This document shows, piece after piece, positions 2,741 to 37,134 of a stretch of DNA of 57,988 nucleotides (position 1 is the first letter of the stretch; each line of letters starts with the position of its first letter). A program made the translations under genes and the position numbers. The DNA comes from a virus. The stretch spans positions 1-57,988 of the IMG/VR virus record IMGVR_UViG_3300031965_000033. One strand, 5' to 3'. Under the pieces are notes generated by a model. That model was given only the letters and a program-made list of their open reading frames with translations, made no database searches and was not told the origin of the DNA.

Positions 2741-2746
2741 GGAGGT

Positions 2747-2935: not shown

Positions 2936-2936
2936 G

Positions 2937-3011: not shown

Positions 3012-3021
3012 AGGAGGAGGT

Positions 3022-3306
3022 ATGAACAAGATTTCGCCAAGCCAAGAACCGATTGGGATAAGCACCATCGCGGTCATCGTCTCGTGGCTCGGTGGCCGGT
3101 ACGCGCTCGACCTGGACACGGCAACGGCGTCCGCTGTATCGGTGGTCGTGCTTGTGGTCGCTCAATGGTTGGCGCGTCGGTTCAGCACGCCGGTCGGCAA
3201 GGCTGAGAATGCCGTCGCAACCGCACTCCAGACCGAGCCAACGATCGCGACGGTGGCCGGGTCGGACGTGCAGAGCAAAGAGATATTGGCAACGAGCAAG
3301 GCGTAG
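3022..3306 (+). CDS. Small membrane protein (two predicted TM helices; holin-like by architecture)
   Basis: ATG 3022 follows a strong AAGGAGGAGG. Hydrophobic stretches IGISTIAVIVSWLGG and AVSVVVLVVAQWLA. The ORF opens at 2932. Confidence 0.6.
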   Translation: MNKISPSQEPIGISTIAVIVSWLGGRYALDLDTATASAVSVVVLVVAQWLARRFSTPVGKAENAVATALQTEPTIATVAGSDVQSKEILATSKA

Positions 3307-3311
3307 AATAC

Positions 3312-3402
3312 CCATATCGCCTGATCGTCTAATGGTGAGGACACCTTGCCCGAAGTATCCTAGGCGGGTGAGGAGGCGCGGGTTCGATTCCTGCAATATG
3401 GC
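3312..3402 (+). ncRNA. tRNA-like element 1 (non-canonical; aberrant or degenerate tRNA)
   Basis: Canonical T-arm gcggg-ttcgatt-cctgc (3378-3394). Canonical D-arm gtct-aatggtga-ggac (3327-3342) preceded by TC. 4-nt variable loop. However, the anticodon arm is a 9-bp stem (3344-3352/3365-3373) with a 12-nt loop, and the acceptor halves do not pair in register. Confidence 0.45.
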
Positions 3403-3414
3403 GCACCGGAGGGG

Positions 3415-3624
3415 ATGATGAGAACTCAAACCGAAAAAAGGTTCTGCTCAATCACGCGCGAGTCGTGCGAGAAGTTAGCGAGAGAACTGTATGCACAGGA
3501 CCACCCTGACGATGGTCCATTCTTCCTTGGATTCACCGATCATTGGGACGAGTACTTCAACCGAGTCTATGCATTCGACGAGGCGATGCGAGCGCTCGGA
3601 TTCACACTCGTTCGGTCAGCCTAA
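3415..3624 (+). CDS. Hypothetical protein (69 aa)
   Basis: GGAGGGG lies upstream of the ATG. Composition is balanced and protein-like. Bracketed by the 13-nt direct repeat atggcgcaccgga (3398-3410 and 3634-3646). Confidence 0.6.
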   Translation: MMRTQTEKRFCSITRESCEKLARELYAQDHPDDGPFFLGFTDHWDEYFNRVYAFDEAMRALGFTLVRSA

Positions 3625-3646
3625 CCCCGCGCGATGGCGCACCGGA

Positions 3647-3665
3647 CGTGCTATGCTGACGGCAC
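3647..3665 (+). promoter_or_regulatory. 19-nt repeat copy 1 (cgtgctatgctgacggcac), extended -10-like TGcTATGCT
   Basis: Perfect 19-mer repeated at 3946-3964, each at the head of an ORF-free unit that ends in an intrinsic terminator. No convincing -35. Confidence 0.35.
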
Positions 3666-3945
3666 ATAGATCGGTGGAGCAACCCCAGACACAGGGCCAC
3701 CGGGTAGTACCACACGGCTCCTGTGGTATGTAGCGGAGCCATTTACTTGGTCACGACGGGAAACAGGTTGGCCTCTGGGCGCAACGGTCGAACAGACAAG
3801 AACCGTAGGCCACGATGAAGTAGTCGCGTAACGATGAGAGGGCGCGACGAAAAAGCACCTAGCCCGTATGCTGAGGTACCTGCTGTAATGCATGTTTCGT
3901 GACTAAGACGAGAATGGCGGGGGCACACACGCTCTCGCCGTTTTT
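3666..3945 (+). ncRNA. Structured ncRNA (~280 nt), family unknown
   Basis: No credible ORF. H-type pseudoknot at 3710-3740 (ccaca/tgtgg interleaved with ggctcc/ggagcc). Hairpins at 3672-3702, 3768-3812 and 3823-3848. Long-range 7-bp helix 3750-3756/3897-3903. Ends in the terminator 3916-3945. Confidence 0.5.
3916..3945 (+). terminator. Intrinsic terminator
   Basis: ggcgggggc-acacac-gctctcgcc (9 bp including 2 G-U) followed by gTTTTT. Confidence 0.7.
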
Positions 3946-3964
3946 CGTGCTATGCTGACGGCAC
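3946..3964 (+). promoter_or_regulatory. 19-nt repeat copy 2 (cgtgctatgctgacggcac), extended -10-like
   Basis: Identical to 3647-3665. Starts right after the T-tract of the preceding terminator. Confidence 0.35.
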
Positions 3965-4084
3965 CACGATCATGAACGTGGGAGATAACTCACGCAAGCG
4001 GAGAGGTGCCTTGGCGTATTCACCTGGTTCGATTCCAGGCCTTGCGTGACACATCGATTGAGCCGTCCTCCGGGGCGGCTTTTT
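3965..4084 (+). ncRNA. Short ncRNA carrying tRNA-like element 2 (acceptor/T-arm minihelix, 3990..4049)
   Basis: Perfect T-arm cctgg-ttcgatt-ccagg (4023-4039) enclosed by a perfect 9-bp stem tcacgcaag/cttgcgtga (3990-3998/4041-4049). Only 24 nt stand in place of the D and anticodon arms, and this segment aligns with part of element 1. Ends in the terminator. Confidence 0.5.
4061..4084 (+). terminator. Intrinsic terminator
   Basis: agccgtcc-tccg-ggggcggct, an 8-bp stem running into TTTTT. Confidence 0.75.
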
Positions 4085-4190
4085 CGTACACGTTGTTTCT
4101 GTGTGCATCTTCGGGAGTCTGCCGTCACAAGCAACGTATCGGCTCGACACGCGGGCGGGTGGGGCGCTACGATTGCGGGCGGAGGTGACG

Positions 4191-4706
4191 ATGGCAAAGG
4201 TTGAGGTCGACACAGAATATCTCTCGAACCTACGCGCTCTGGCAATTGGGATTGAGTGCTCAGACGAAGAAGTCGTCAAGCAACTCGACGGGTCCAACAT
4301 CGAATACATCATGGCGGCGATCGCCAAGAGCAACGATGAGGTTCACCCGATCGACCGAATCACCAAATTTGAGCAGGTCCCCGAACTTGTCGGAGTGGTG
4401 ACCGACGAACAATACGAGTCAATTTCGGTGGCAATGTCCGTGCTCTACGACAGAAGAAATAAGTACCTGAAGGCGATCAACGCAATTGATGCGTGGTCAG
4501 GGAGCCATGAACAAGGCGAAGTGTGGAATGTCCTACAAAACAGGCTAGCGACAACCATCGTCTGTCTGAATACGTTGCGGAGCATTCTGCACGAACGGGC
4601 GACCCCTGATTATTGTCGTTCTCATCCAGAAGAGTGTGCCAATACAAACGAGACGATGAAATCGCTTAGATTGCATTGGGACAAAGAAGCGGCCGGAGTG
4701 GCCTAA
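4191..4706 (+). CDS. Hypothetical protein (lysogeny-module cargo)
   Basis: ATG 4191 after GGAGGTGACG (the ORF opens at 4101). Convergent with the integrase and overlaps it by 4 bp. No motif recognised. Confidence 0.65.
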   Translation: MAKVEVDTEYLSNLRALAIGIECSDEEVVKQLDGSNIEYIMAAIAKSNDEVHPIDRITKFEQVPELVGVVTDEQYESISVAMSVLYDRRNKYLKAINAIDAWSGSHEQGEVWNVLQNRLATTIVCLNTLRSILHERATPDYCRSHPEECANTNETMKSLRLHWDKEAAGVA

Positions 4707-6232
4707 CGAAACCCTTTACCGCCCCTCGGCACAGCAATAACCACCCCCGGCAGATGCGGCGCAACCTCGGGCAGATAAACCACCCTGACCCCATGCTCAC
4801 TGACATAGACGGTCCCGAGCGTCGCCAACAACGTCCGCAACCGATCCCCGGACGTCTCGGCAATGACCTCGGTCATCGTCGACAACTGCTGTGACATCTG
4901 CTCGATCGCCGCCAGCGATTGCGGTTTCGGCAAAGCAGCGACGGCCTCCGCGTGCTCCCGTTCAGCGGTGGCCAGCAGCTCGTCTTCCACATCCATCACA
5001 TCGCCGGGAAGTTTGCCGACGGCATAACGACTACTCATACGCTGCCACCGCGCCTGTGCGTCGCTGAGGCGCTTGTCGAGCCGTGCACGGTGTTTGACTA
5101 CTGACGTGCCACCACTTCGCTCCTGGGCGATTGTGAGGGCTTCAGCGGGTGTTCTCACACCGGCGAAGTCGGCAACGAGACACCGCCGTACCGCGGTCTC
5201 GAGCAACTGCCCGCCGATGATCTTCCTAGGCTCGGTGCAATGGACGGTCATCGTCTTACCCAGACCCCGGCAGACGAACATTCCGCCGCTGCCCTTGGAA
5301 TAGGATTGCCAGTACATGCGTTGCCCGCAGACGTGCGTGACGTAGCCCTCCAACCAAGAGTCGATCTGGTTTCGGCGGATTACGGGAGCGCGGCTAAGTT
5401 TGGCCTGCACGCGGTCGAACAGGTCACGGGGCACGATCTGCCATGCGTCGTTGTGTGCGACAACCTGACCGTGATGCGCGATGTCGCCGGTGTAGATCGG
5501 AGATTGGAGCATCGCGCGAACGGTTGAGCGTTCCCACTGCCCGCCACGGGGACCGGGACCGAGCGCGGCCATCGATTCGGCCAGCGTGTGGATGGATTCG
5601 CCGGCGTCGAACCGCGTGAACAGATCGAGGATGATCGCGGCGCCGTCGGGGTCGATCAGCGGTTCGCCGGTTTGGCGTTCGTAGCTGGTGCCGTTGGCGC
5701 GGTGAATGGTGATCGTGTGGGGTCGTCTAAACCCGGTAGGCGTTGGGCCCGTGGGGAATCCACCGTCACGGGCTCTTCTCGCAAAGGCGTTCTTGAGATG
5801 CGCGGACGTTTGGCGTGTCGCGTTCTCATTCATCAAGCCGTAGATGCCGCGGATGAACGGATCGTCGATCCCGCCCTCGGTGTCACTGACGATGCGCCCG
5901 ACGCCCGCGCGTTCGATCTCGCGGCAGATCATGAGTTGCAGGATCAGATCACGGGCGAGGCGAGAGAGCGCGAAGAGCCAGACGATATCGACCCGTTGGC
6001 TCTTGACGGCATCAAGCAGCGTCTTGATGCCTGGGCGGTCGGCGTCCGCTCCCCGCAGATCGTGATCGGTGATGACCTGGGCCACGGTGCCACCGATGGA
6101 CGCGACCCACGCTTTGCCGCGCTCTTCTTGCGAGCGGAGCGACAGGCTGGTCTTCGCGTCTTCGCCTGGTCTTTGCTCTGACTGCCTTGCATAGATCACG
6201 ACACGCGGCGCTGACCCGTTGGCATCTAGCAT
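4703..6232 (-). CDS. int: Large serine recombinase (integrase)
   Basis: N-terminal resolvase-type catalytic domain (VVIYARQSEQ..., LFALSRLARD). 509 aa, with a Cys-containing zinc-ribbon-like region and a C-terminal coiled-coil-like tail, typical of large serine integrases. Confidence 0.9.
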   Translation of the reverse strand: MLDANGSAPRVVIYARQSEQRPGEDAKTSLSLRSQEERGKAWVASIGGTVAQVITDHDLRGADADRPGIKTLLDAVKSQRVDIVWLFALSRLARDLILQLMICREIERAGVGRIVSDTEGGIDDPFIRGIYGLMNENATRQTSAHLKNAFARRARDGGFPTGPTPTGFRRPHTITIHRANGTSYERQTGEPLIDPDGAAIILDLFTRFDAGESIHTLAESMAALGPGPRGGQWERSTVRAMLQSPIYTGDIAHHGQVVAHNDAWQIVPRDLFDRVQAKLSRAPVIRRNQIDSWLEGYVTHVCGQRMYWQSYSKGSGGMFVCRGLGKTMTVHCTEPRKIIGGQLLETAVRRCLVADFAGVRTPAEALTIAQERSGGTSVVKHRARLDKRLSDAQARWQRMSSRYAVGKLPGDVMDVEDELLATAEREHAEAVAALPKPQSLAAIEQMSQQLSTMTEVIAETSGDRLRTLLATLGTVYVSEHGVRVVYLPEVAPHLPGVVIAVPRGGKGFR

Positions 6233-6261: not shown

Positions 6262-7509
6262 ATGAGTACACGCATCCTCATTGGCGACGTTCGTGAGCAA
6301 CTTGCAACGCTGCCCGATCAGTCGGTTCAATGCTGTGTGACCTCCCCGCCGTACTACGGACTGCGTGATTACGGTGTTCCCGGCCAACTCGGACTAGAGC
6401 CGACACTTGCGGAATACATCGCCACGATGGTTGAGGTGTTCCGAGACGTGCGACGCGTGCTGCGAGACGACGGTACGCTCTGGCTCAACATCGGGGATTC
6501 GTACAACGCCGGTACGTCGGCAGGTCGAAAGCCGAGCGCCAACGTGGAGCACGGATATTGGGGAAACGGCGGCTCGATGGGTGATCGTCGTGTCAAGGAT
6601 GTGACGACCAAAACCAAGGACCTGATGATGGTCCCGGCGCGTCTGGCGATTGCGCTGCAAGACGATGGTTGGTATCTCCGCTCGGACATTATTTGGGCGA
6701 AACCAAACCCGATGCCCGAGAGCGTGACGGATCGCCCGACATCGAGCCACGAGCACATCTTCCTGCTGACCAAGAGTCGCACCTATTTCTACGATGCTGA
6801 TGCGGTTCGGTCGCCACTTGCTGAATCGTCGATCTCTCGACTGTCGCAGAACATCGAATTGCAGATCGGTTCGGAACGGGCGAACGGTGGTGCGAAGACC
6901 AACGGCACAATGAAAGCCGTCGGCGGCCGGCAATGGTGGAACGAAACTAAAGGCCCGGACTACATGACCGCTAGAGACGGTCGTAACGACGGCGGGAAGA
7001 TCAAAGGTGGCAAGAATCCAGACGATCATATGCTCGGTGCCAATGTCCGCAACGTCTGGAACATCGCCACGATGCCGTATGCTGAGGCGCATTTCGCCAC
7101 ATTCCCACCAGAGATACCGCGACGGTGCATCAAGGCAGGATCATCTGAAAAGGGATGCTGCGCGTCCTGTGGCGCTCCATATCGACGATCCACCAATGTC
7201 ACGTACGAAAACCCCGGAAACCGAACAACGAACGGATCGCGTTCACTAGAACAGCGACACGAGACGGCAGGGTTCGCGGTCAGGTTAGAGAAGCGAGTCG
7301 AGACAACCGGCTGGTCGGCGTCGTGCGAATGCGAGGCGGATATCTCGCCGTGTGTCGTGCTCGATCCGTTTCTTGGCAGCGGTACGACGCTGCTGGTTGC
7401 CGACCAACTAGACCGCGACGGCATCGGAATCGAACTGAATCCGGCGTACGCGGAACTTGCCCGGTTACGCATCTACAATGACGCCCCGCTCTTTGCCAAC
7501 ATCGCCTAA
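6262..7509 (+). CDS. DNA methyltransferase (N4-cytosine or N6-adenine, beta-class order)
   Basis: Motif IV TSPPYYGL near the N-terminus and motif I VLDPFLGSGTT near the C-terminus. No cognate nuclease adjacent. Confidence 0.9.
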   Translation: MSTRILIGDVREQLATLPDQSVQCCVTSPPYYGLRDYGVPGQLGLEPTLAEYIATMVEVFRDVRRVLRDDGTLWLNIGDSYNAGTSAGRKPSANVEHGYWGNGGSMGDRRVKDVTTKTKDLMMVPARLAIALQDDGWYLRSDIIWAKPNPMPESVTDRPTSSHEHIFLLTKSRTYFYDADAVRSPLAESSISRLSQNIELQIGSERANGGAKTNGTMKAVGGRQWWNETKGPDYMTARDGRNDGGKIKGGKNPDDHMLGANVRNVWNIATMPYAEAHFATFPPEIPRRCIKAGSSEKGCCASCGAPYRRSTNVTYENPGNRTTNGSRSLEQRHETAGFAVRLEKRVETTGWSASCECEADISPCVVLDPFLGSGTTLLVADQLDRDGIGIELNPAYAELARLRIYNDAPLFANIA

Positions 7510-10094: not shown

Positions 10095-10238
10095 GTGTAC
10101 GACGACCAATACGGAGACGAGCTGAAGTACCCGCCGCACCCGGACCCTGGATTTTTGATCGGTGCTCTCAACGCGGTCCTGTTCGCCTTCGCGCTCATCG
10201 GCATCGTGATCCTCATCGTCAATTTCCTTGTCTCATGA
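10095..10238 (+). CDS. Small membrane protein (47 aa)
   Basis: GTG 10095 after GGAGGGGAG. C-terminal TM helix FLIGALNAVLFAFALIGIVILIVNFLV. The stop overlaps the next gene (ATGA). Confidence 0.45.
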   Translation: MYDDQYGDELKYPPHPDPGFLIGALNAVLFAFALIGIVILIVNFLVS

Positions 10239-10969
10239 GCACACCTGTGAAGTTCTACGAACGTGACGGGATCACGATCTACCACGGCGATGCGAGAGAC
10301 ATTCTGCCCACGATTGCGCCGGGTTCGGTGGACTTAGTGCTGACCGATCCGCCGTACCAGAGCCTTGACGTCGAAGTGACGGTCGGCACCACTACGCGGC
10401 TAGTTGGTCTCGACCAACTAGCCGGTAAGCGATTGGCCGCACTCGGAGGGCGAGCGTGGTTTGAGACGTTGCCAGCCGCCGACATCATTGCGGCTATCCA
10501 GTTTGGGCAATCGCTTCTCAAGCCAACAGGGGCCACGTATGTCTTTGCAGATGTAAAGAGCGGGCTGGAACTTTTCCCACTCTTGGATCCAGCGAATGTC
10601 ATCGTATGGGACAAACTTAAACTCGGCATGGGGTACAACTGGCGACGAATGCACGAATGGATCGCATTCATACCCCAGCCGGACCACAAACTGAGAAACC
10701 AAGGGCGCGGCGACATCATCCGGTGCAACGGCGTCGGTGAAAAGTCGCACCCGACTGAGAAGCCTACCGGCGTGCTCCAGTCTCTCATTCTCAATTCAAC
10801 CGACAAAGACGACCTCATTATCAATCCCTTCATGGGCACCGGCTCCTTATTGGTTGCGGCGTCCAAACTCGGACGCCGCGCTATCGGTATCGACATCAAC
10901 GAGGACTACTGCATCACGGCCTACAAACGCCTGCAACAAACGGCGATGAATCTAGAGATACCAGCATGA
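10235..10969 (+). CDS. DNA N6-adenine-type methyltransferase (DPPY, beta-class order)
   Basis: LVLTDPPYQS (motif IV), HPTEKP, and INPFMGTGS...GIDIN (motif I). Confidence 0.9.
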   Translation: MSTPVKFYERDGITIYHGDARDILPTIAPGSVDLVLTDPPYQSLDVEVTVGTTTRLVGLDQLAGKRLAALGGRAWFETLPAADIIAAIQFGQSLLKPTGATYVFADVKSGLELFPLLDPANVIVWDKLKLGMGYNWRRMHEWIAFIPQPDHKLRNQGRGDIIRCNGVGEKSHPTEKPTGVLQSLILNSTDKDDLIINPFMGTGSLLVAASKLGRRAIGIDINEDYCITAYKRLQQTAMNLEIPA

Positions 10970-21521: not shown

Positions 21522-22163
21522 GTGGCTCAAACCGTGCAACCGGATATCTGGAGATCACGCATCGTCGGATACGCTGACGTGCCGCCCGATCAACTCCTCG
21601 CGAACGAAAACAACTTCCGGCGCCATCCCCGTACCCAGCAAGACGCGCTCTCTGGCCTCATCGGTGAAATCGGATATATCGATCCGGTGCTCGTTCAGTC
21701 CGGCACCGATCGCGTCATTGACGGTCACCTTCGCGTTGAGCTTGCGCTGCGCACCGGGCAGCCGACCGTGCCCGTGCAGTACGTCGATCTGACCGACGAC
21801 GAGGCGAACCTTGCATTAGCATCGTTCGATCCGATAAGTGCGATGGCCTACCACGACGCCGCGCAACTCAAGGCGCTGCTCGACGAGGTGTCAACGTCCG
21901 ACGCGGCGGTCATGGCGATGTTGAGTGAACTGGCCGAGGATGCGGGCGTGATTCCGCCGGATTGGTCCGACGCGATGGGTGGCTTACCCGACGGCGACAA
22001 ATCTCCGTTTGAGCAGATGACGTTCACGGTATCGACCAAACAGGCTGAGGTCGTTCGTGAGGCATTGTCACAAGCCAAGGGTGGGGGATTCGATACCGAC
22101 AATGAGAACAGCAACGGCAACGCCTTAGCGCGGATTGCGGAGGCGTACCTCGATGCCGCATGA
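21522..22163 (+). CDS. ParB-like nuclease domain protein
   Basis: ANENNFRRHP..Q..L..I..IGYIDPVLV..DRVIDGHLRVELA pattern of the ParB/Srx N-terminal domain. GTG 21522 lies 7 nt after GGTGGAGG (the ORF opens at 21477). Confidence 0.75.
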   Translation: MAQTVQPDIWRSRIVGYADVPPDQLLANENNFRRHPRTQQDALSGLIGEIGYIDPVLVQSGTDRVIDGHLRVELALRTGQPTVPVQYVDLTDDEANLALASFDPISAMAYHDAAQLKALLDEVSTSDAAVMAMLSELAEDAGVIPPDWSDAMGGLPDGDKSPFEQMTFTVSTKQAEVVREALSQAKGGGFDTDNENSNGNALARIAEAYLDAA

Positions 22164-22986
22164 CCTGACCGCCAAAGACATTGTGCTTCGACCGATTGAC
22201 TCGAAGACCGCGAATGCATTGGTCCGGCGTGTCCACTATTCAGGCAAGGTGGTCAACAATTCGCAACTGCATATCGGCGTCTACCTCGGCGGCAAACTTG
22301 AGGGCGTGATGCAGTTCGGGCCGTCGTTGGATAAGCGCAAGTTACAGGGGTTAGTAGCGGGAACCGGGTGGAACGAATTCATCGAATTGAACCGGATGGC
22401 GTTCACCGATGCGCTACCCCGCAATAGCGAATCACGGGCGCTATCGATCGCCATGAAGTTGCTTCACAAACATGCCCCGCATGTGAAATGGGTCGTTACG
22501 TTTGCCGATGGCGCTCAGTGTGGGGATGGGACGATTTATCGAGCGGCGGGTTTTGTTCTGACGAGTATCAAAGTCAACGATCAGGTTTGGACTGATGGCG
22601 GTACGACTGACAGTCGTACCGCCATCACTGCGTTAGGACATAAAGGCGCGTCGGCACAACGTCGGACGATCAGCCGAATGACGGTAACCAAGGGGCAACA
22701 CATAACCGAAACCGGCGCTTCGTCCATGAAGCAATATGCAGATGCCGGATTCGCGCCGCTAAAGGGCCATCAACTCCGCTATGTCTACTTCCTCGACCCG
22801 TCGTGCCGGGAACGATTGACCGTGCCGATTCTGCCGTTTAGTGAAATCGAACGACGGGGCGCGGGTATGTATCGCGGTGAACCACGCGCCGGAAGTGTTG
22901 ACAGCGACACGCTCGGAGTCCATCCGGGAGAGGGCAGTGCGATCCTGACCTCGGCGCTCCACGATCACGCGATGGCGGCGGACTGA
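22153..22986 (+). CDS. Mom-like GNAT-fold DNA-modification protein (putative)
   Basis: VHYSGKV...IGVY..G.L.GVMQFGP...ELNRMAF.D.LPRNSESRALS...VVTFAD...GDGTIYRAAGF matches my recollection of the Mom/acyltransferase-like phage family. Overlaps the ParB-like gene by 11 nt. Confidence 0.55.
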   Translation: MPHDLTAKDIVLRPIDSKTANALVRRVHYSGKVVNNSQLHIGVYLGGKLEGVMQFGPSLDKRKLQGLVAGTGWNEFIELNRMAFTDALPRNSESRALSIAMKLLHKHAPHVKWVVTFADGAQCGDGTIYRAAGFVLTSIKVNDQVWTDGGTTDSRTAITALGHKGASAQRRTISRMTVTKGQHITETGASSMKQYADAGFAPLKGHQLRYVYFLDPSCRERLTVPILPFSEIERRGAGMYRGEPRAGSVDSDTLGVHPGEGSAILTSALHDHAMAAD

Positions 22987-24747: not shown

Positions 24748-25002
24748 GTGATCATCCAATTACTCTCCGGTTTTGGCGGTCTATCGCTTGGAGTTGTATT
24801 TTACAAGTGGCGAGATCGATGTCGTTCGAGAGATGACGAAAAGAATCTTGCGTTACACCTAGTACAGCAACGGCGCGCGGAGATCGCACAGTGGAAGACT
24901 GAGGCCATGCAAACTATATCGTATCCTGGTGGTAGCGAAAGCGGCGCGGACACCGTGAATCCGAGGCTGGCTGGCATTGCCGTGCATGGATGGTCAAACT
25001 GA
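24748..25002 (+). CDS. Hypothetical protein with N-terminal TM helix
   Basis: GTG start. IIQLLSGFGGLSLGVVFY hydrophobic N-terminus. Lies between terminase and portal. Confidence 0.45.
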   Translation: MIIQLLSGFGGLSLGVVFYKWRDRCRSRDDEKNLALHLVQQRRAEIAQWKTEAMQTISYPGGSESGADTVNPRLAGIAVHGWSN

Positions 25003-26456
25003 TGACCGATTCGACCAAGATCACCGTCAACCCCGTCGGCTCCCCCGGCCTCAACGTCATGGGCGGCTACATCTACGAAGAGTGGGACCGGCGGCTCACG
25101 GGCACGAAGGCGATCAAAACCTATCGCGAGATGGTCGACGATCCGAACGTCTACGCGGTGCTGTTCGCGATCGAATCGATGGTGCGCGCGGTCGGGTTCC
25201 GGATCGACGCCGCCGACGATTCCGAGCCCGCGAAGGCTGAGGCCGAATTAGTCCACACCGATTTCGACGAGATCGATGGCGCATGGGGCGATACGTTCTC
25301 AGAGATTCTCTCGTGCATCCCGTTCGGCTTCAGCCTGATGGAAGTGCTGTACAAGCGGCTCGAGTCCGGCCGGGTGACGTGGGACCGTTGGGCGCCGAGA
25401 GCGCAAGAAACGATCCAGGAATGGACGTTCGATCAAACGACCTGGGAAGCGACGCACGCGATTCAGCAAGCGCCGCCGCGCAACAAGCGGGTGTCGATCC
25501 CGCTTGATCGCTGCCTGCACTTCCGCATTCGCCCGAGGAAGCAGAACCCTCAGGGTAGTTCTCTCCTTCGACCTTGTTTCGATCCCTGGTATTTCACCAA
25601 GCACATTCAACGGATCGAAGCAATCGGGATCGAGCGGGACCTGACGGGTATCCCCGAGATCGGGATACCGGCTGACGACTATAACGATGAGACGAAGCGC
25701 ACGGCCTGGGAGCAAGTCGGATCACAGATCAAAGCCAATGAGGCCGCGTACATGCTCCTGCCGACCGACGTGTTCGCGAATACCTCAGTTCCGCGGTATT
25801 CGTTCCGGCTCGTCACCACGGCCGGCGAGCGTTCGATCGACACCGACGCGGTGCTTGCCCGCTACCAGCGCTCGATCTTCCGCGCGTTCCTGGGTGGATT
25901 CCTCACGCTGGGCGATCAGGGCGTCGGCTCGTATGCGTTAGGTTCCACGCAAGCGGATCTCTTCATCACGGCCGCCAAGGCGCTCCTGGAGGGCATTCAG
26001 GACACGATCAATGTCAACGGCGTCCGGCGACTGGCCGCGATCAACGGCGTACCGGACGAACTGATCCCGACGTTTCGGTTCAACGAGGTCAAGCAGACGG
26101 ATGTGACAGCGTTCGCGCAGACGATGGTTGCGCTGGCGACGGCGGGATTTGTCGATCCGAACGACCCGAAGATTCAGCAGCATGTGTCCGATGTGCTCGG
26201 GTTGCCAATGATGGACGATGTTGTTGACGACGACACTGAAGCGCCCGCGAAACCACCAGTGAAGCAACTGCCGTCGGGCGAGCAGATGACGCCTGAGCAG
26301 ATGCAAGCAACTGAGTCGCTGGCGTTCGCGGAGAAAAAGCAGTTGACGGCGGACCAGATCAAGCGGGCGGTTAAGGCGTGGAGCGATGCGATGAAAGGCG
26401 AGAAGAACGCGCCGCCGCTCGATGTCGAGGTGGTTGGTGAGGAGGATGCGCCCTAA
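24990..26456 (+). CDS. Portal protein (Mu gp29/DUF935-like)
   Basis: 488 aa directly after terminase. TYREMVDDPNVYAVLFAIESMV region resembles DUF935 portals. Acidic C-terminus. Confidence 0.85.
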   Translation: MVKLMTDSTKITVNPVGSPGLNVMGGYIYEEWDRRLTGTKAIKTYREMVDDPNVYAVLFAIESMVRAVGFRIDAADDSEPAKAEAELVHTDFDEIDGAWGDTFSEILSCIPFGFSLMEVLYKRLESGRVTWDRWAPRAQETIQEWTFDQTTWEATHAIQQAPPRNKRVSIPLDRCLHFRIRPRKQNPQGSSLLRPCFDPWYFTKHIQRIEAIGIERDLTGIPEIGIPADDYNDETKRTAWEQVGSQIKANEAAYMLLPTDVFANTSVPRYSFRLVTTAGERSIDTDAVLARYQRSIFRAFLGGFLTLGDQGVGSYALGSTQADLFITAAKALLEGIQDTINVNGVRRLAAINGVPDELIPTFRFNEVKQTDVTAFAQTMVALATAGFVDPNDPKIQQHVSDVLGLPMMDDVVDDDTEAPAKPPVKQLPSGEQMTPEQMQATESLAFAEKKQLTADQIKRAVKAWSDAMKGEKNAPPLDVEVVGEEDAP

Positions 26457-29757: not shown

Positions 29758-31038
29758 ATGCCCTACACACATACAACCAAATCGGACGGGCAGACGCTGA
29801 CTGCTGCCGAGTGGAACGCGGTCGGCGATGCGGTTGAGTCGGGCACGGTGTCCGTTACCGAAGTCCTTGTCGCCGCGTCCAACGCGCCCGCGAAGACCAT
29901 TGCCGGCGCGGATTACGGCTGCGATGGCACGGACGATCATGTCCAGATTCAGGCAGCGATTGATGCCGCGCAGGCCGATGTCGATGCGCACGGCGGAGCC
30001 ATCGAGCTCAAACTGATTGGCGACTTCAAAACCGCCGATACGATTGAGTGGAAGTCATGCCCGCTCGTTGGCTCCCAGACCAAGCACGGCACATCGCTGC
30101 GCTGGGACGGCGCGGCGGGCGGTCTCATGATGACAAAAAACCATACGCTCGAAGGCGGCATGTCGCTCAACCATATGCGCGAGATTCAGTTCCGAAGCGG
30201 CACCGCTGAGCCGCTCAACTTCCTCGAATTCCCGCACAGCACGGACTCAGGCAAGTACGTTGACGCGGAGCTCCAACTTCAGCGTGTCAAATTCTTTGGA
30301 TCGTCCGGGTCCGGCATCAAAGTCGGGCGCTGGGTCAATCTCCATTGGGAGCATTTGCGATGGGATAACGTCGGCGGGTACGCGATTGAGCTCAAGGCGG
30401 GCCAGTTCGACAACCAGGCGGACTTCTGCATCGATGGCTTTAGCTATGATCACAGCCGCACGTCATCGCGCGGACTTGGTTTTCTCAACATTGACCTGAC
30501 GACCCATCCCAGCAACGCGGGAACGGTCACACTTAAGAATGCCCGCGTCGAGGTTAACAAGGCATGGGAAGGCAACCAAGCCTTCGTCAATCTCTACCAC
30601 GGCGCGGATTCCACCGCATCAGCTCGCAGCGTGCAGCTCCATATCGAGGACATCACGTTCCAGGATGTCGGCAACGGCGAAGCCAAGATGACCGACGATT
30701 GCATCATCTACCGGGACACCGCCAACACAACCCAGAGTGAATCGTTTTATATCGAGAACTGCGTATGGACATCGGATTCCGCCGTCCTTGGTGGAACATG
30801 GCCGACGACGCAGGTGATTCCGGCGATGCCACCCGCCGGATTGATCCAGTTGATGGTCAACGGCAGCGTGCTTCGTTTGCTTGACGGCGTGTCGGTCAAA
30901 GTCGTGGCGGGCGCGGTTAGCGACGGGAGTTTCGCGCCGACCACGGTTCCGGACGGTACAGTCGCAATCGATTCGACCAACGGACGATTTTATTTCAAGT
31001 ACGGCGGGGCTTGGCATTACGTAACCCAGACAGCGTAG
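29758..31038 (+). CDS. Pectate-lyase-fold (right-handed beta-helix) protein, depolymerase/fibre-like
   Basis: GADYGCDGTDDHVQIQAAIDAA matches the N-terminal signature of Pectate_lyase_3-type tailspikes. Confidence 0.65.
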   Translation: MPYTHTTKSDGQTLTAAEWNAVGDAVESGTVSVTEVLVAASNAPAKTIAGADYGCDGTDDHVQIQAAIDAAQADVDAHGGAIELKLIGDFKTADTIEWKSCPLVGSQTKHGTSLRWDGAAGGLMMTKNHTLEGGMSLNHMREIQFRSGTAEPLNFLEFPHSTDSGKYVDAELQLQRVKFFGSSGSGIKVGRWVNLHWEHLRWDNVGGYAIELKAGQFDNQADFCIDGFSYDHSRTSSRGLGFLNIDLTTHPSNAGTVTLKNARVEVNKAWEGNQAFVNLYHGADSTASARSVQLHIEDITFQDVGNGEAKMTDDCIIYRDTANTTQSESFYIENCVWTSDSAVLGGTWPTTQVIPAMPPAGLIQLMVNGSVLRLLDGVSVKVVAGAVSDGSFAPTTVPDGTVAIDSTNGRFYFKYGGAWHYVTQTA

Positions 31039-31048
31039 GAGGCGAGCG

Positions 31049-33676
31049 GTGGCGTTCGTCTCGGACAGCTTCACCGATACCGATACAACCGAACTGTCGC
31101 TCCACACCGGCGAAACCGGGGCGACCTGGACAAAGCACGCCTCGTATAGCACGCTCATCACGATCGTCGGCAACCGTGCCGTGGTGCCCGCCACGACCAA
31201 TACGCTCTACTACGCGAGCGGAACGCCCACCAACGCCGATTACGATGTTGAGGCAGCGATTACTCCGAAGGCCGTTGAGGCCAACGTCGGCATCTGCGCC
31301 CGGATCGACACGTCGGCGAACACGCTCTACATCCTGCAATACGTCGCCGCCAGCACCCGCTGGGAGATCGGACGATTCAGCGCCGGGTCGTACCAAGCGC
31401 TCGGCACCTTTACCCAGACACTCACCGTTGATCAGGCGTACGCGGTCAAGTTCGAACTGCGCGGCGACGCACTCAAGGCGTACATCGACAGCGTTGAGCG
31501 GATCAGTGTCACGGATAGCACCATCACGGCAGCGGGGCGCGTCGGCATCCGGGGCTCTCGGGTTGGCGCGGACGCGGCGACTCGTGGTCTGCATGTCGAT
31601 GATTTCAGCGCGAGCGATCCAGCGGTCGCGGGTCAATTCGCCCGTCCCGACGCGGATGTGTCGGCCGGGACGTGGACCACCGCTCCGCTCTGGAGCAGCA
31701 TCGACGAAGCGGCGGCTGACGACGGCGATCTCATCACCTCGTCAACCACCTCGGGCAGTACGTGCGAGGTTGCGCTCTCCGACGTAACCGACCCCGCCGT
31801 CTCCACCGGGCACATCGTCCGCTACCGCTACAGCAAGACGGCGACTGGGGGTAGTAGTCCGAACATCACGGTCGATCTGGTCGAAAACACGACCGTTCGC
31901 GCGAGTAGCGGCGCGGTCGCGATCCCGGACGCGACGACCTGGAACGACGGAACGTTTACCCTGACTGGCGGGGAAGCCGACTCGATCACGGACTACGCGG
32001 ACCTGCGGTTGCGCTTCACGATGACGCGAGCCGGGGGATCTGCTCGCGGCGCTCGGGTAAGTTGGGCAGAGTTTGAGGTCCCAGCGGCTGGGACTCCGGC
32101 GTCCCTAACGGTGGCAGCGGCAACGGCGCCCGCCGCTGGGGGCACAGTCAATCTCCTGGTTGCCGCGATCCTATCGGTCACGGCGGCAACCAGTGCAGCG
32201 GCGGCAGATGGTGCGCTCACCGTTCCGAATGCACTGACCGTCACCGCAGCTGAGGCAACCGCCGCTGGCGATGCGAACATCACCGCCGCGTCGATCCTGA
32301 CCGTGACCCCGGCTGAATCCCCGGCGGCAGGCGGGTCGGTCAACCTGTCGGCGGCGTCCCTGTTGACGATTACACCTGCCGAGTCCCCCGCTGCCGCTGA
32401 TGGCGCACTCACCGGGCAAGGCGCTCTGGGCGTCGTCAACGCCACCGCACCGGCCCAGGCCGAATCTGTCGATCTCGTTGGTTCGGCGGTCGCAAGCCTC
32501 ATGGTTGATCCCGCGACATCCGCCGCCGCTGGTGGACCCGTGAACTTTACGGCGGCGGCGCGGATGGTCATCTCCGAGGGATTCGAGCTCGGTGAGGACC
32601 TGCTCGGCACGGGCACGCTGGGCACAGGTCTCCCGTCGGCTAGTGCTGACGGTGGAGCGGTCACCTTTGCCATTACGTCGGCGCTAATCGTCACCCCTGC
32701 TGAAGCACCGGCATCGGGTGGCACGGTCAACCTAACTGCAGCCTCGTCATTCGCGATCACACCGGCTGAGGCTTCGGCTGTTGGCGATGGCGCGTTGACC
32801 GGGCAAGGCGTGCTCGGGGTTTCGATCGCGACCGCTCCCGCTGCTGGTGGGGCGGTTGATCTGCTCGGTGATGTGAGCGCGGCGGGCACGTTGACCGTGG
32901 CGGCTGCTGAGGCTCCGGCAGCTGTTGATGCCAACCTCACCGCCGCGTCCGTGTTCGCGGCTAATACGGCGACGGCCACCGCGCAGGCGGAAACATCCGC
33001 ACTGATCGGACAGGCCCGGCTCGCGGTGGTTGCTGCCGAAGCGGCGGCACAGGCCGAGACCGTCAGTCTCACTGGGCAGGGCATCCTGTCGGTTACCGGC
33101 GCTGAGTCGCCCGCGCAGGGTGAAGGCGTCACGTTCGATGCCGCCGCCCGGATGGTGCTGGCCGAAGCTCTGGCAAGTGCCGAGGCGGGCGCGGTTTCGC
33201 TCAATGCCGGTGGCGCGGCGTCATTGACGGTCAGTCCGGCGACAGCAGACGCGGCGGCTGACAGCGCGTTCACGGCGGCGGCGACATTCGGCGTGACCAC
33301 GGCGACCGCTGTTGCCGAAGGCGCGGCGGTTTCGTTTGACGCCGCGAGCAGGATGGTCCTAGTATCGGCGCTCGCGGCCGCGGCGGGCGGGGGCGTTACG
33401 CTCGCTGCACCAGGCGCGCTCGCCGTTGATCCAGGCGCGGCTACGGCGGCGGCCGACGGCGCTATGGTTGGGGCTGCCATCCTGTCATTGGATGCAGCGA
33501 TCGCCGTCGCCGCAGCAGCTGGAGATGTGAATTCCGCTGGGTCAATCGCGTTCCTCGGGCGGTTGACGATCAGCGCCACCGGCGGACTGGTTACTGTGAC
33601 GAATACAGACGGCGACCTTACCATAACGCAATCAGGTGGAGTCCTGGCAATCACAGGAGGTCAATACGATGACTGA
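31049..33676 (+). CDS. Large repeat protein: LamG/ConA-like N-terminal domain + ~25 degenerate Ala/Thr/Gly-rich repeats
   Basis: GTG after GGAGG. The N-terminal ~190 aa is jelly-roll-like. From about aa 350, units such as LTVTPAESPAAGGSVNLSAAS repeat. Confidence 0.7.
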   Translation: MAFVSDSFTDTDTTELSLHTGETGATWTKHASYSTLITIVGNRAVVPATTNTLYYASGTPTNADYDVEAAITPKAVEANVGICARIDTSANTLYILQYVAASTRWEIGRFSAGSYQALGTFTQTLTVDQAYAVKFELRGDALKAYIDSVERISVTDSTITAAGRVGIRGSRVGADAATRGLHVDDFSASDPAVAGQFARPDADVSAGTWTTAPLWSSIDEAAADDGDLITSSTTSGSTCEVALSDVTDPAVSTGHIVRYRYSKTATGGSSPNITVDLVENTTVRASSGAVAIPDATTWNDGTFTLTGGEADSITDYADLRLRFTMTRAGGSARGARVSWAEFEVPAAGTPASLTVAAATAPAAGGTVNLLVAAILSVTAATSAAAADGALTVPNALTVTAAEATAAGDANITAASILTVTPAESPAAGGSVNLSAASLLTITPAESPAAADGALTGQGALGVVNATAPAQAESVDLVGSAVASLMVDPATSAAAGGPVNFTAAARMVISEGFELGEDLLGTGTLGTGLPSASADGGAVTFAITSALIVTPAEAPASGGTVNLTAASSFAITPAEASAVGDGALTGQGVLGVSIATAPAAGGAVDLLGDVSAAGTLTVAAAEAPAAVDANLTAASVFAANTATATAQAETSALIGQARLAVVAAEAAAQAETVSLTGQGILSVTGAESPAQGEGVTFDAAARMVLAEALASAEAGAVSLNAGGAASLTVSPATADAAADSAFTAAATFGVTTATAVAEGAAVSFDAASRMVLVSALAAAAGGGVTLAAPGALAVDPGAATAAADGAMVGAAILSLDAAIAVAAAAGDVNSAGSIAFLGRLTISATGGLVTVTNTDGDLTITQSGGVLAITGGQYDD
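32090..33560 (+). repeat. Degenerate ~60-66-bp tandem coding repeats inside 31049..33676
   Basis: Recurrent ...ACn CCn GCn GAn GCn CCn GCn... units, with higher-order duplication (about 32270-32520 vs 32690-32890). Confidence 0.6.
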
Positions 33677-33935
33677 GCCGATCTATGTTGGACAAACGTT
33701 TCGCGCCACCGCGAGCGAATTGGTTGACGCCGCAGGGGTCACGCTGACCACGCCGGTCGTTACGATAACGATCACTGATCCCGACGATGATGTGACGGTT
33801 GGAACGGTGGTTCCCAGTGGGTCAACCTATTACGCGGAATTCGAAGCCGACCGGCGCGGCATCCATACGATCGTGGCGCGCGCGGTCGCTGGGGGTGGCA
33901 CATGGATTGACAAAACGGAGGTTACGATCTCGTGA
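33669..33935 (+). CDS. Hypothetical small beta-rich protein (Ig-like?)
   Basis: ATG 33669 lies 8 nt after AGGAGG (the ORF opens at 33636). Confidence 0.55.
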   Translation: MTEPIYVGQTFRATASELVDAAGVTLTTPVVTITITDPDDDVTVGTVVPSGSTYYAEFEADRRGIHTIVARAVAGGGTWIDKTEVTIS

Positions 33936-34053
33936 CGCTGACACCGAACTTGCATACGTTGCGAACATAGCGTAGAGTCTTCCGTAATTATCGATTCTGG
34001 GCCACGCGCCCTCTGCTTCTGAGCTACGCGCTCCAAAGCATTGGGCGTTTTGC

Positions 34054-35772
34054 ATGTCCCGGACCTGGACCTCATTCCAATTCGCCAAACCCGATAAGCG
34101 ATCATCGGCCATGGTTGGCCTCTGGCTTGCGCCCGAACCAGCCGCAACGCTCGCGCTCGATGGTCAACTCCCACCCGACCAACTGCATATCACGCTCGCG
34201 ATCCTGGAGGCCGATGCCGCCAGCCTGAGCGACGTGCAGCAGGCGCGTTTCCTGACCACGGTTGACGATCTCGCGGCTTGGACCGCGCCGCTTTCCGGCG
34301 ATGTCGCGGGCATGGGCCGGTTCTACGCGTCGGACTCGAGCGACGGTCAAGACGTGCTCTTTGCGATTCCGAATGTCGAGGGCTTGGGAAAACTCCGGCA
34401 CCGGCTGTGCGAGAACCTTGGGTACGCGCAACTCCCGCACAAAGACGACTTCGAGTTCTTTCCGCACATTAGCCTCGCCTACGTCGCGTCCGGCGCCGAA
34501 TCGCCCGTGGCTGCCGTCGCAACGACTCCGCTCAGTTTCACCGCCCTGACCGTCGTCATGGGCGATCGGATGACCACCGTCCCCCTTCGTGGTTGGTCCG
34601 ACGGCGCGATGTCCTACGCCGATGCCGGGATCATCGGCGAGGGGCACCGCCTGTTCACCGAACTGCAAACCTACATCGAACCGCCTGAATGGCTTCCGCT
34701 CATGCCGGCCCCCGGCAACTACGTGCACCGCGACTACGGCACGGTCGATTTACCGGCGGATCGGATCGAACGGCTTGTGGCCAGCATCAATAACGGGGTC
34801 TATCAAAAGTCGATTCCGATCGATGTCTCGCACGACAAGGACGATCTCGACCTAAACGGCGGGCTCGGCTGGTTCGGCACTGCCCGCATCAATGCCGACG
34901 GCTCCGCCGATGTGCGGGTCGAATGGACGCCGCGTGGCACGGAAGCGCTGCTGGCGGATCGGTTCCGGTACGTCAGTCCGGAGTTCGCGCTCTCATGGAA
35001 AGACGAGGACGGTGTTGATCACGACGATGTCGTGCTTGGCCTGGCCCTCTGCACGAATCCCTTTTTCAAGGACCTCGCGATCGATCGTGCGCTCGTTGCG
35101 TCCGAGCGCGGCGCGTCCGTTTCCACGCTTTCTCTTGTTCATCAGTTTGGCGAGCCGGTGCGGTTCGTCGCGAAGGATCAGGCGCACCGCGCGCCGGAGG
35201 AAACACTCATGGCAGACGAGAAGCCAGCAGTTGCCCCCACGGCTCAGCAGTTCACGGAGTTGAGCCAATCGTTCAGCGATCTCAAGACGAGTTTCGGCGA
35301 GTTGCAGCAGAAGTTCACCGAGTCGGAGACGGCGCGCGAGACTGAGAAGACCGCACGCGAAGCCGCCGAAGCCAAAGCGACCGAAGCCGATGCCCGCATC
35401 CAGGCGATGGAAGACGCGAAGCGGCGCAAGGAATTCACGGACGAGGTTCTCGGTAAGTCGGACGCGAGCGGGATTCGCTGGTTCGGCAACGCCGATAACC
35501 ACATCAAAATCCTTGAATCCTTTACCGACGATGCGCTCCGGCAGACCTACATCGACGAACAACGTGAGAACGCGAAGCGGATGACGGCGGCCGCGATCAA
35601 GCCGGAGATTGGCAGTGATGCGCCGGGAGAGACCGACATTCAGTCTCAGTACAACGCCGAGGTCACGCGGGTAATGACGGAATCGAAGGTGTCCAAGGCG
35701 CAGGCAACCCGCACGGTGTTGCGTGAGAACCGGGAGCTCGCGGCCGCGGTTGCGGCTGGAAAGGTCAAGTAA
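34054..35772 (+). CDS. Fusion protein: 2H phosphoesterase (LigT-like) domain + Mu gpI-type prohead protease + coiled-coil scaffold
   Basis: Two HxT/S motifs (LHITLAIL, PHISLAYV) about 100 aa apart. Then IPIDVSHDKDD..GWFGTARINADGSADVRVEWTPRG..FRYVSPEF (Mu I-like). Then a long Glu/Lys/Ala-rich helical region. The start may be 34111. Confidence 0.8.
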   Translation: MSRTWTSFQFAKPDKRSSAMVGLWLAPEPAATLALDGQLPPDQLHITLAILEADAASLSDVQQARFLTTVDDLAAWTAPLSGDVAGMGRFYASDSSDGQDVLFAIPNVEGLGKLRHRLCENLGYAQLPHKDDFEFFPHISLAYVASGAESPVAAVATTPLSFTALTVVMGDRMTTVPLRGWSDGAMSYADAGIIGEGHRLFTELQTYIEPPEWLPLMPAPGNYVHRDYGTVDLPADRIERLVASINNGVYQKSIPIDVSHDKDDLDLNGGLGWFGTARINADGSADVRVEWTPRGTEALLADRFRYVSPEFALSWKDEDGVDHDDVVLGLALCTNPFFKDLAIDRALVASERGASVSTLSLVHQFGEPVRFVAKDQAHRAPEETLMADEKPAVAPTAQQFTELSQSFSDLKTSFGELQQKFTESETARETEKTAREAAEAKATEADARIQAMEDAKRRKEFTDEVLGKSDASGIRWFGNADNHIKILESFTDDALRQTYIDEQRENAKRMTAAAIKPEIGSDAPGETDIQSQYNAEVTRVMTESKVSKAQATRTVLRENRELAAAVAAGKVK

Positions 35773-36162
35773 ATGGCGTGGGAAGGTCCAATGATCAAAG
35801 CGCCCGCGCTCGTCGCGGCCGGCGATCTCTCAACCAAGCAGTATTACTTTGTGAAGCTGAGCGCGGCAAACACGGTTACGGTGTGCACCGGAGCGACCGA
35901 CAAGCCGTACGGCGTGCTCCAGAACACCCCGGATGCTGCGGGCGAGCCTGCTGAGGTTTGCGTATTCGGCTTCACCAAGGTCAGCGGCGACGCCAACCTT
36001 GCGTACAACGATTCCGTCGGCACCTCGGCGGACGGACAGGCTGCGACCTACACCGTGTCCGATACCACCAAGTACATCGTCGGAGTTGTTCAGGAGGATA
36101 ACGCGGCGGCCGGTGGCCTAGCGACGATCTTCCTTCATGGGCCTGGCCGGGTCCTGGCCTAA
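35773..36162 (+). CDS. Head decoration / cement protein (DUF2190-like)
   Basis: 129 aa between scaffold and capsid genes. KQYYFVKL...GVLQN...GEPAEVCVFG pattern recalls DUF2190. Confidence 0.65.
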   Translation: MAWEGPMIKAPALVAAGDLSTKQYYFVKLSAANTVTVCTGATDKPYGVLQNTPDAAGEPAEVCVFGFTKVSGDANLAYNDSVGTSADGQAATYTVSDTTKYIVGVVQEDNAAAGGLATIFLHGPGRVLA

Positions 36163-36183
36163 GCCGAGAAGGAGTAACGTACG

Positions 36184-37134
36184 ATGGCTCAGCCCACACT
36201 CAGTTCAGTCCATATCAATCAGCCTTTGACACAGATTAGCGTCGCGTATCTGCAATCGGTAGATCACTACATCGCGACGAAGGTCTTTCCGATCGTGCGC
36301 GTCGGTAAACGCACGGACAGCTACTTCATTTACACCAAAGACGATTGGCGTCGCGATGAGGCGAAGATTCGACCACCGGGAACCGAGTCCGCTGGCTCCG
36401 GCTACGGGCTCAGCACAGCGACCTATACCGCCGACGTGTTCGCGTTCCACAAGGATGTCGACGGGCAAACACTTGCCAACTCAGACGATCCGCTGCGACC
36501 GTACGAGGACGCGACAGAGTACGTCACCCAGCGCTTGCTGCTCCGGCAGGAAAAGCAATGGACGGCCGACGCATTCGTCACCGGCGTGTGGGGCACCTCG
36601 ACTACACCCTCCGCGCTGTGGAGCACCTATGCGACGTCGGTCCCGATCACCGATGTCGAAACCGCGAAACGCACCATCTTGATCAATACCGGCTTTATGC
36701 CGAATACGATGGTGGTCGGGTACGACACGTACATTCAACTGATCAACCATCCCGATATCGTTGACCGGCTGTCGAACCAGTCAGACCGAATTGTCAACGA
36801 AGGGAAGCTCGCCTCGATCTTCGGACTCCCGAACTTCTATATCGCCAAGGCCTCGGAAAATACCGCCGTTGAGGGCGAAACCGCGGTCAACGCCTTCGTC
36901 CAGGGCAAGCACGCCTGGGTCGGCTATGTTGCGCCGAATCCATCGCTGTTGACTCCGAGCGCGGGCTACACCTTCGTCTGGGATTCCGTCTCGGGCGGCA
37001 TCGGTGAGGACATCGCGATCATGCGGCTCGATATGCCGTGGATCGACAGTGTGCGGATCGAGGGGCAGCTTGCATTCGATAATAAGTTGGTCGCAACAGA
37101 TTTAGGTTACATGTTCGTTGATGTGGTCGCATGA
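36184..37134 (+). CDS. Major capsid protein (lambda E / Mu T-like, HK97 fold)
   Basis: 316 aa after the scaffold and decoration genes. GAAGGAG RBS. The N-terminal QPLTQISVAY..ATKVFP.V.V region resembles Phage_cap_E-type capsids. Confidence 0.85.
   Translation: MAQPTLSSVHINQPLTQISVAYLQSVDHYIATKVFPIVRVGKRTDSYFIYTKDDWRRDEAKIRPPGTESAGSGYGLSTATYTADVFAFHKDVDGQTLANSDDPLRPYEDATEYVTQRLLLRQEKQWTADAFVTGVWGTSTTPSALWSTYATSVPITDVETAKRTILINTGFMPNTMVVGYDTYIQLINHPDIVDRLSNQSDRIVNEGKLASIFGLPNFYIAKASENTAVEGETAVNAFVQGKHAWVGYVAPNPSLLTPSAGYTFVWDSVSGGIGEDIAIMRLDMPWIDSVRIEGQLAFDNKLVATDLGYMFVDVVA

Follow-up and report, generated by a model that had tools for sequence, protein, structure and literature searches.

Here we describe a phage gene in which a 2H phosphoesterase domain is joined, in one reading frame, to a prohead protease and a scaffold. 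The gene occupies positions 34054-35772 of the 57,988-nucleotide IMG/VR virus record IMGVR_UViG_3300031965_000033, which was analyzed over its full length (hereafter, the window) and is a whole temperate-phage genome. We propose that this is a head-maturation gene of the Mu I/Z type that gained an N-terminal 2H cargo, and that the cargo is loaded into the capsid, released, injected, and active on host nucleotides; we rate the chances of this reading as about even. The gene provides a further carrier, the protease/scaffold, for the prediction of head-packaged 2H domains published in 2017 and 2022 (PMC5512222 and PMC9503650).

The 2H domain and its protease-scaffold carrier

An earlier, sequence-only reading had assigned the gene an N-terminal 2H domain followed by a Mu gpI-type protease and a scaffold. 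The position of the open reading frame (ORF) and this domain order are upheld by the ORF list and by matches to PF13563, PHROG 14859, and PHROG 328. PF13563 (2'-5' RNA ligase superfamily, 2H family) aligns with amino acids (aa) 34-163 with an E value of 5.9e-8 and 33.3 bits (36.1 for the domain alone; gathering score, 27), and PHROG 14859 ("RNA ligase") aligns with aa 18-192 with an E value of 5.6e-22. The motifs LHITLAIL, PHISLAYV, IPIDVSHD, VEWTPRG, and FRYVSPEF were all located in the 572-aa protein, the last three in its middle third. Twenty-five full-length homologues, with identities of 33-60%, have the same architecture.

The full protein was modeled with AlphaFold using the alignment of 25 homologues. 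The model contains an alpha/beta domain at aa 18-178 (predicted local distance difference test [pLDDT], 85-93), a disordered linker at aa 181-204 (pLDDT, 32-33), a mostly confident, beta-rich protease domain at aa 205-334, a second disordered segment at aa 335-395 (pLDDT, 24-40), a single 69-residue helix at aa 397-465 (pLDDT, 75-89), and a mostly confident helical domain at aa 480-571. The part previously called a coiled-coil scaffold is predicted to be helical and is described here as the long helix followed by the helical domain. Across the homologues, mean pairwise identity is highest in the protease (0.54), followed by the 2H domain (0.47) and the scaffold (0.33). In conservation the 2H domain thus about equals the protease and exceeds the scaffold, which suggests that it is under constraint similar to that on the essential protease.

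The two HxT/S motifs, initially placed about 100 aa apart, are H45-I-T47 and H138-I-S140, with 93 residues between the two histidines. H45, T47, R89, and H138 are invariant in the 25 fusion homologues, as anticipated for the His motifs of a 2H enzyme; position 140 is Thr or Ser (Thr in 24 sequences and Ser in the query), and Y143 is present in 24 of 25. When 1.84 billion cluster representatives were searched exhaustively with a profile, a wider 2H clade emerged, with 7,712 representatives at E values up to 1e-3 and 1,386 at E values up to 1e-30. The H, T, F, P, and H of the domain are invariant in 143 distant members of this clade.

The predicted fold agrees with the family assignment. Modeled alone, aa 1-199 reached a pLDDT of 85.3 and a predicted template modeling (pTM) score of 0.80, and the 50 best PDB fold matches found with Foldseek are all 2H proteins. 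The best is the Deinococcus radiodurans CPDase (5h7e; E value, 4e-9; template modeling [TM] scores for query and target, 0.66 and 0.72), and the matches include Thermus TT0787 (1iuh; 1.1e-7; 0.64 and 0.69), Escherichia coli LigT (5ldm; 2.1e-6; 0.61 and 0.69), the rotavirus VP3 phosphodiesterase (4rpt; 1.8e-6; 0.49 and 0.66), and, at rank 35, Acb1 (7t27; 6.5e-4; 0.40 and 0.53). A 2H sequence-profile search ordered the families in the same way as the fold comparison did, with E values of 2e-6 to 8e-6 for PH0099, TT0787, and the D. radiodurans CPDase, 0.007 for mouse hepatitis virus ns2, and 1.9 for Acb1. When every second of the best 143 clusters was scanned with Pfam (72 proteins), 62 matched LigT_PEase and 6 matched the Acb1 family PF23474, weakly. 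As modeled, the 2H domain is closest to the bacterial LigT/ThpR cyclic phosphodiesterases and not to Acb1, which the sequence-only reading had cited as an example.

Two narrower identifications were considered and rejected. The domain is not the ThpR equivalog, with TIGR02258 scores of 15.7-18.4 bits versus a cutoff of 65.7, and where PH0099 has an Arg after the second motif, the phage 2H domain has an almost invariant Tyr. It is not Acb1; the query did not match PF23474 at E values up to 1, and the clade profile matched 7t26 with an E value of 1.9. A single-sequence search of PDB sequences with aa 1-199 returned only CNOT1, at an E value of 0.1, which is spurious, and a profile search was required.

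The middle of the protein is assigned to the Mu gpI-type proteases. PHROG 328 ("head maturation protease") aligns with aa 208-464 with an E value of 1.7e-10. PF10123 (Mu-like prophage I protein) aligns with aa 233-449 at 20.8 bits, under the gathering score of 25.2, and scores 31-47 bits on homologues of the same family; precomputed PF10123 matches are present on many of the fusion homologues. H225, H260, S308, and K339 are invariant in the 25 homologues. H260 and S308 align with the Mu gpI motifs IDYEH and FGYLS and are the predicted catalytic residues. The hhalign comparison of the family with Mu gpI gave a weak probability of 12% and served motif correspondence only. The protease region had no match among PDB sequences, and no protease structure was among the top fold matches.

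A nested, in-frame scaffold gene that starts at M386, as Z does in Mu gene I, is well supported by sequence conservation and by analogy. A ribosome-binding site precedes the M386 codon by 7 nucleotides (Table 1), and M386 marks the onset of the helical part of the protein. The corresponding alignment column holds Met in 20 of 25 homologues, and each of the five DNA loci compared (the window, L004, L005, L006, and L007) has a Shine-Dalgarno site with ATG in the corresponding place. A local scaffold hidden Markov model always matches C-terminal of the protease in 35 clusters. Such sites are common in this genome, which counts against the assignment: 20 GGAGG-N5-9-ATG sites were observed in the window, versus 9.7 expected. 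An internal start can therefore not be argued from the motif alone, and the case rests on conservation and the Mu precedent. The nested protease/scaffold arrangement of lambda C/Nu3 is analogous.

The sequence-only reading had raised the concern that the true start might lie downstream of the 2H domain, near aa 200. An internal start does exist, but at aa 386 and not near aa 200, and the full-length product retains the 2H domain. The metagenome gene caller began the gene at M20 (identical protein P0001, encoded on a 58,002-nucleotide contig). The motif R-x-W-[ST]...F-x-x-P within aa 1-19 recurs in at least nine homologues (e.g., P0003, P0005, P0007, P0008, P0009, P0010, P0013, and P0016) and in L007; because of this conservation, the start at 34054 is more likely than M20. 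The 2H domain is encoded whichever of the two is used. Neither start is preceded by a clear Shine-Dalgarno site, and a scan of 33500-36300 found no promoter or terminator. The lack of a clear site at the full-length start suggests that the 2H-protease form is probably the minor product.

Fusion partners across the 2H clade

The sequence-only reading took the fusion to imply that the enzyme is built into procapsids, and the comparative evidence for such targeting is strong. Among the best 143 clusters of the clade, 35 encode the 2H domain, a Mu-I protease, and a scaffold in this order, which answers whether other Mu-I-type proteases carry the domain; 19 encode 2H followed by an XkdF protease, and only 16 encode 2H domains that appear to stand alone. 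In the 72 sampled proteins, the Pfam partners are Mu-like_Pro (20 proteins), Peptidase_S78_2 (XkdF; 8), Peptidase_S78 (3), three portal families (11), MuF (2), and capsid (1). At least 45 of the 72 are fused to head-internal proteins, and no tail or terminase family is listed among their Pfam partners. The C-terminal end of portals faces the capsid interior, and of the 10 portal fusions checked, 8 have the 2H domain at this end; the other 2 lack a recognizable portal. The clade is thus fused almost only to head-internal proteins, and because no tail or terminase family is listed with it, this distribution supports capsid loading.

Cultured phages carry related forms, and among them the nearest relatives of the domain are encoded in head modules. 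Arthrobacter phage Salgado gp18 (L001, 5833-6954) consists of a 2H domain and an XkdF-type protease (PF14550), and about 50 of 61 word-index matches have this form. Its gene is named inconsistently across near-identical genomes, as "RNA ligase," "aldolase class I," "capsid maturation protease," or "hypothetical protein." Streptomyces phage Abt2graduatex2 gp11 (1,250 aa) is recorded as a "capsid maturation protease and MuF-like fusion protein." Pfam places MuF at aa 115-241 and a subthreshold 2H match at aa 358-467 (16.4 bits versus a gathering score of 27), and tblastn with the query matches this 2H region with an E value of 1e-4; Pfam detected no protease domain in gp11, which is a protease by record annotation only. 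Fold matches in BFVD include the "capsid morphogenesis protein" of Microbacterium phage OneinaGillian and large Gordonia phage proteins.

Mu-I protease homologues without a 2H domain (P0027-P0048) bear other N-terminal modules, as do the N termini of P0024 and P0026. These include a ChaB-like module (MPYxSxxDLPxxVKKLPxKxQRQWMxVWNSSY...), with ChaB confirmed in 2 of the 72 proteins; a 4-Cys module of about 50 aa (CGxCRFF...SCxLVEGxI...CDLWT); and a helical "ARAHAGG" repeat. A diverged, hidden 2H domain in the long Mu-I homologues that lack a Pfam 2H match was considered and rejected, as hmmsearch was negative. The N terminus of the Mu-I-type protease family appears to be a hotspot for domain gain.

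The surrounding head module and genome

The features of the gene and of its head module are listed in Table 1. The module has the conserved order Mu-type portal, 2H-protease-scaffold gene, cement-like protein, and major capsid protein. The cement-like protein has weak Pfam matches to Phage_cement_2 and XM1_gp53 and keeps its position in L004-L006.

Table 1. Features of the 2H-protease-scaffold gene and its head module
Feature	Coordinates	Strand	Evidence
Full-length gene: 2H phosphoesterase, prohead protease, and scaffold	34054-35772	+	ORF list; 572 aa plus stop
N-terminal extension, aa 1-19 (MSRTWTSFQFAKPDKRSSA)	34054-34110	+	Upstream of the gene caller's M20
2H phosphoesterase domain, aa 20-178	34111-34587	+	PF13563 match; AlphaFold (pLDDT, 85-96); Foldseek
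First catalytic motif, H45-I-T47	34186-34194	+	H45 and T47 invariant in 25/25
Second catalytic motif, H138-I-S140	34465-34473	+	H138 invariant
Disordered linker 1, aa 179-204	34588-34665	+	pLDDT, 32-33; conserved M-x-Y-A-D motif in the homologue alignment
Mu gpI-type prohead protease domain, aa 205-340	34666-35073	+	PHROG 328; Mu gpI motifs
Candidate catalytic residue H260	34831-34833	+	Invariant
Candidate catalytic residue S308	34975-34977	+	Invariant
Disordered linker 2, aa 341-385	35074-35208	+	pLDDT, 24-40; conserved LVASERG and PVRFVA motifs
Internal ribosome-binding site GGAGGA (35196-35201) and ATG (35209-35211; M386)	35196-35211	+	7 nucleotides apart
Nested scaffold protein, 187 aa (aa 386-572)	35209-35772	+	Long helix, aa 397-465; helical C-terminal domain, aa 480-571
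Mu-type portal protein of the same head module	24990-26456	+	PF06074 Portal_Mu, E value 7.2e-40; PHROG 113 match
Head protein, 129 aa, cement/decoration-like or scaffold-like	35773-36162	+	PHROG 673, E value 1.9e-15
Major capsid protein, 316 aa	36184-37134	+	PHROG 1005, E value 8.9e-76; synteny conserved in L004-L006

The genome encodes a serine recombinase, two DNA methylases, a Mom-like protein, a primase-polymerase, TerL, a portal, a major capsid protein, and a tape-measure protein. The large serine recombinase (4703-6232, minus strand) is the sole long minus-strand gene and indicates a temperate lifestyle. The Mom-like DNA modification protein (22135-22986) and two N6/N4 DNA methyltransferases (6262-7509 and 10235-10969), all on the plus strand, point to a heavy investment in antirestriction beside the putative 2H cargo. 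The only close genomic relative is a contig of a Gammaproteobacteria metagenome-assembled genome.

A tail-fiber-like 426-aa protein (29758-31038) and an 875-aa protein (31049-33676, plus strand) are inserted between the portal and protease genes, and a similar insertion is present in L004. The 875-aa protein is Ala/Thr rich, contains many degenerate LTVTAAEATAAG-like repeats, and matched no Pfam or PHROG family; its gene is located where the GC content of the window peaks (0.659). For the ORF that follows (33636-33935, plus strand), the GTG at 33636 that is listed as the start is probably incorrect. The alternative, GGAGG at 33656 with ATG at 33669, gives 88 aa, and this start overlaps the stop of the 875-aa gene. 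In L006, the relative that encodes P0026, a 1,561-aa, MuF-containing, polyvalent-looking protein is encoded at 307-4992, just upstream of the 2H-protease gene, and the L006 phage may carry two kinds of head-delivered cargo.

Proposed function and comparison with known systems

Under the proposed mechanism, one reading frame would yield two products, a rarer full-length protein from a weak ribosome-binding site and a commoner scaffold-only protein from M386. Through the C-terminal helical scaffold part, which both share, the products would coassemble with the major capsid protein, so that a few 2H-protease copies would be enclosed in the procapsid. The Ser/His protease would then digest the scaffold and cut the disordered linkers, freeing a folded 2H domain of about 20 kDa; linker 1, with its M-x-Y-A-D motif, is the candidate site for this release. 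The freed domain would be kept in the head and enter the host with the DNA, and the LigT-like 2H enzyme, its catalytic motifs intact, would be active there before any phage gene expression, hydrolyzing 2',3'-cyclic, 2'-5', or 3'-5' phosphodiester bonds. We infer retention in virions, ejection, and substrate alike. We consider nucleotide immune signals, for example cyclic oligonucleotides, to be its likeliest targets; the principal alternative is that it heals or cuts RNA ends.

Several points weigh against this mechanism. Prohead proteases and scaffolds normally leave the head or are broken down, and the 2H domain could be destroyed alongside them. The closest characterized relatives are housekeeping or RNA-repair enzymes of the LigT/ThpR type, which are not known to degrade immune signals, and Acb1 is distant in both profile (E value, 1.9) and fold (TM score, 0.40).

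The 2H domain might instead act on RNA, after infection healing the 2',3'-cyclic phosphate ends left on tRNA or mRNA by the host's anticodon nucleases or toxin RNases or serving as a Usb1-like RNase on host RNA. Likeness to LigT keeps such RNA-end chemistry a serious rival, although we consider it unlikely: the best sequence and fold matches (PH0099, TT0787, D. radiodurans CPDase, and E. coli LigT) are RNA 2',3'-cyclic phosphodiesterases, most sampled clade members match LigT_PEase, and an RNase is the option listed first for MuF- or portal-fused 2H domains (PMC5512222). These points are countered by the TIGR02258 scores, far under the ThpR cutoff, by the Tyr found in place of the PH0099 Arg, and by the lack of partners. 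A scan of the 20 larger nonstructural ORFs revealed neither an RNA ligase nor a polynucleotide kinase, RtcB was likewise not found among the larger ORFs, and 2H domains of this type are reported never to associate with RNA ligases (PMC5512222). The absence of a ligase or kinase partner and this published remark tilt the balance slightly toward signal degradation over RNA repair.

Less probable still is that the domain works only late, in the phage-producing cell, the fusion serving to couple its expression to that of the head genes, and that it is cut off around assembly and left undelivered. Several facts fit this possibility: mature heads usually lack proteases and scaffolds, the stretch between the 2H domain and the protease is a disordered linker, and late head proteins trigger many abortive-infection systems. 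Coexpression alone, however, predicts any late partner, whereas the observed partners are head internal (proteases, portal C termini, MuF, and capsid), and the weak start predicts a low copy number, which fits a cargo better than a bulk cytoplasmic enzyme. A noncatalytic structural or assembly module of the procapsid core is very improbable. The gene that encodes the domain is indeed a structural one, and the 2H fold serves as a binding module in some proteins, AKAP18 for example, but both HxT/S motifs and R89 are invariant in the 25 homologues, as are H, T, F, P, and H in the 143 distant members, and close Mu-I relatives do without 2H and bear other N-terminal modules. That the fusion is an annotation or assembly artifact and truly two genes is effectively refuted: the gene caller did pick a different start, M20, but the frame is uninterrupted, and independent samples yield the same fusion in at least 25 homologues and another 35 clusters, as do four independently fetched loci.

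If the 2H domain is truly loaded and injected, the host would contain a premade phosphodiesterase from the first moment of infection, usable against cyclic-oligonucleotide immunity or RNA-cleaving defenses. This would be a virion-delivered counterdefense directed at signaling molecules and not at restriction enzymes, and the nested scaffold suggests a simple way to set the cargo dose. More broadly, and more doubtfully than the reading for this one gene, the N terminus of prohead proteases (Mu-I, XkdF, and HK97-type S78) might be a general dock for capsid cargo. Dose would be set by the ratio of full-length protein to scaffold, and the carrier protease would free the cargo for injection with the DNA; 2H would be the commonest cargo, a premade eraser of nucleotide immune signals acting before phage gene expression. 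Such a dock would be functionally like T4 capsid targeting and independently evolved. Since the family is large, with thousands of clusters and with three protease and three portal families as carriers, a single experiment on a phage in culture, such as one on Salgado gp18, would annotate many head genes now called "RNA ligase" or "hypothetical."

The strategy had been called unusual, a description that does not hold given the 7,712 clade representatives and the earlier predictions. Iyer et al. (2017; PMC5512222, section 20) reported 2H domains fused to MuF or portal proteins, predicted their packaging in the head and injection, and proposed as their activity RNase or the degradation of 2'-5' oligoadenylate (2-5A) and cyclic nucleotides. 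Iyer et al. (2022; PMC9503650, section 3.4.5) repeated the prediction and described a Nudix domain fused to a capsid-processing serine peptidase. The present gene belongs to the same 2H clade, whose profile matches include portal-2H and MuF-2H proteins, and follows the same predicted logic, with no linked RNA ligase. Like the head-packaged effectors recognized in that work, it joins an effector to a head-internal morphogenesis protein within the head module. Its carrier is different, namely a prohead protease/scaffold whose gene contains a nested scaffold gene; neither paper (PMC5512222 and PMC9503650) mentions in its text a protease or scaffold carrier for 2H. Our literature search found no experimental study of any 2H-fusion member, packaged phage 2H enzyme, or 2H-protease fusion. 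With the idea itself already in print, the value of the finding lies in a clean, abundant, and testable architecture.

Salgado gp18 likewise has an N-terminal 2H domain (32% identical; E value, 1e-14) followed by a prohead protease, and its gene lies between the portal/MuF and capsid genes. Unlike the query, Salgado gp18 and its relatives have a protease of the XkdF family and are shorter (about 370 aa), without the long scaffold part. In Mu, as here, a protease core is followed by an in-frame internal start for the scaffold (Z is annotated inside gene I with its own ribosome-binding site), and the head module has a Mu-type portal. Corresponding motifs in Mu gpI and the query are IDYEH and IDVSH, GWF in both, FGYLS and FRYVS, and ALTNDP and ALCTNP. 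Mu gpI, however, has 361 aa and no N-terminal 2H domain, and overall similarity is low, as the hhalign probability and the subthreshold PF10123 score indicate.

As an enzyme, the domain resembles the LigT/ThpR RNA 2',3'-cyclic phosphodiesterases (5h7e, 1iuh, 1vdx, and 5ldm) in its two HxT motifs, fold (TM scores, 0.61-0.72), and profile (E values, 2e-6 to 8e-6), but differs from them in its TIGR02258 score, in the Tyr after motif 2, and in being fused to a virion protein. Acb1, rotavirus VP3, and coronavirus ns2, all of them viral enzymes that break down immune nucleotides, share its 2H fold. The VP3 fold match is good, whereas Acb1 is distant, and none of the three is known as a capsid cargo attached to a protease. 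The T4 internal proteins and Alt are loaded by means of a capsid-targeting sequence, released by the gp21 protease, and ejected with the DNA. The logic predicted here is the same: the cargo would enter the prohead with the core, be freed by the prohead protease, and be ejected with the DNA. T4 uses a short targeting peptide on separate proteins, whereas the 2H cargo is covalently joined to the protease/scaffold itself, and the likeness proposed is one of logic.

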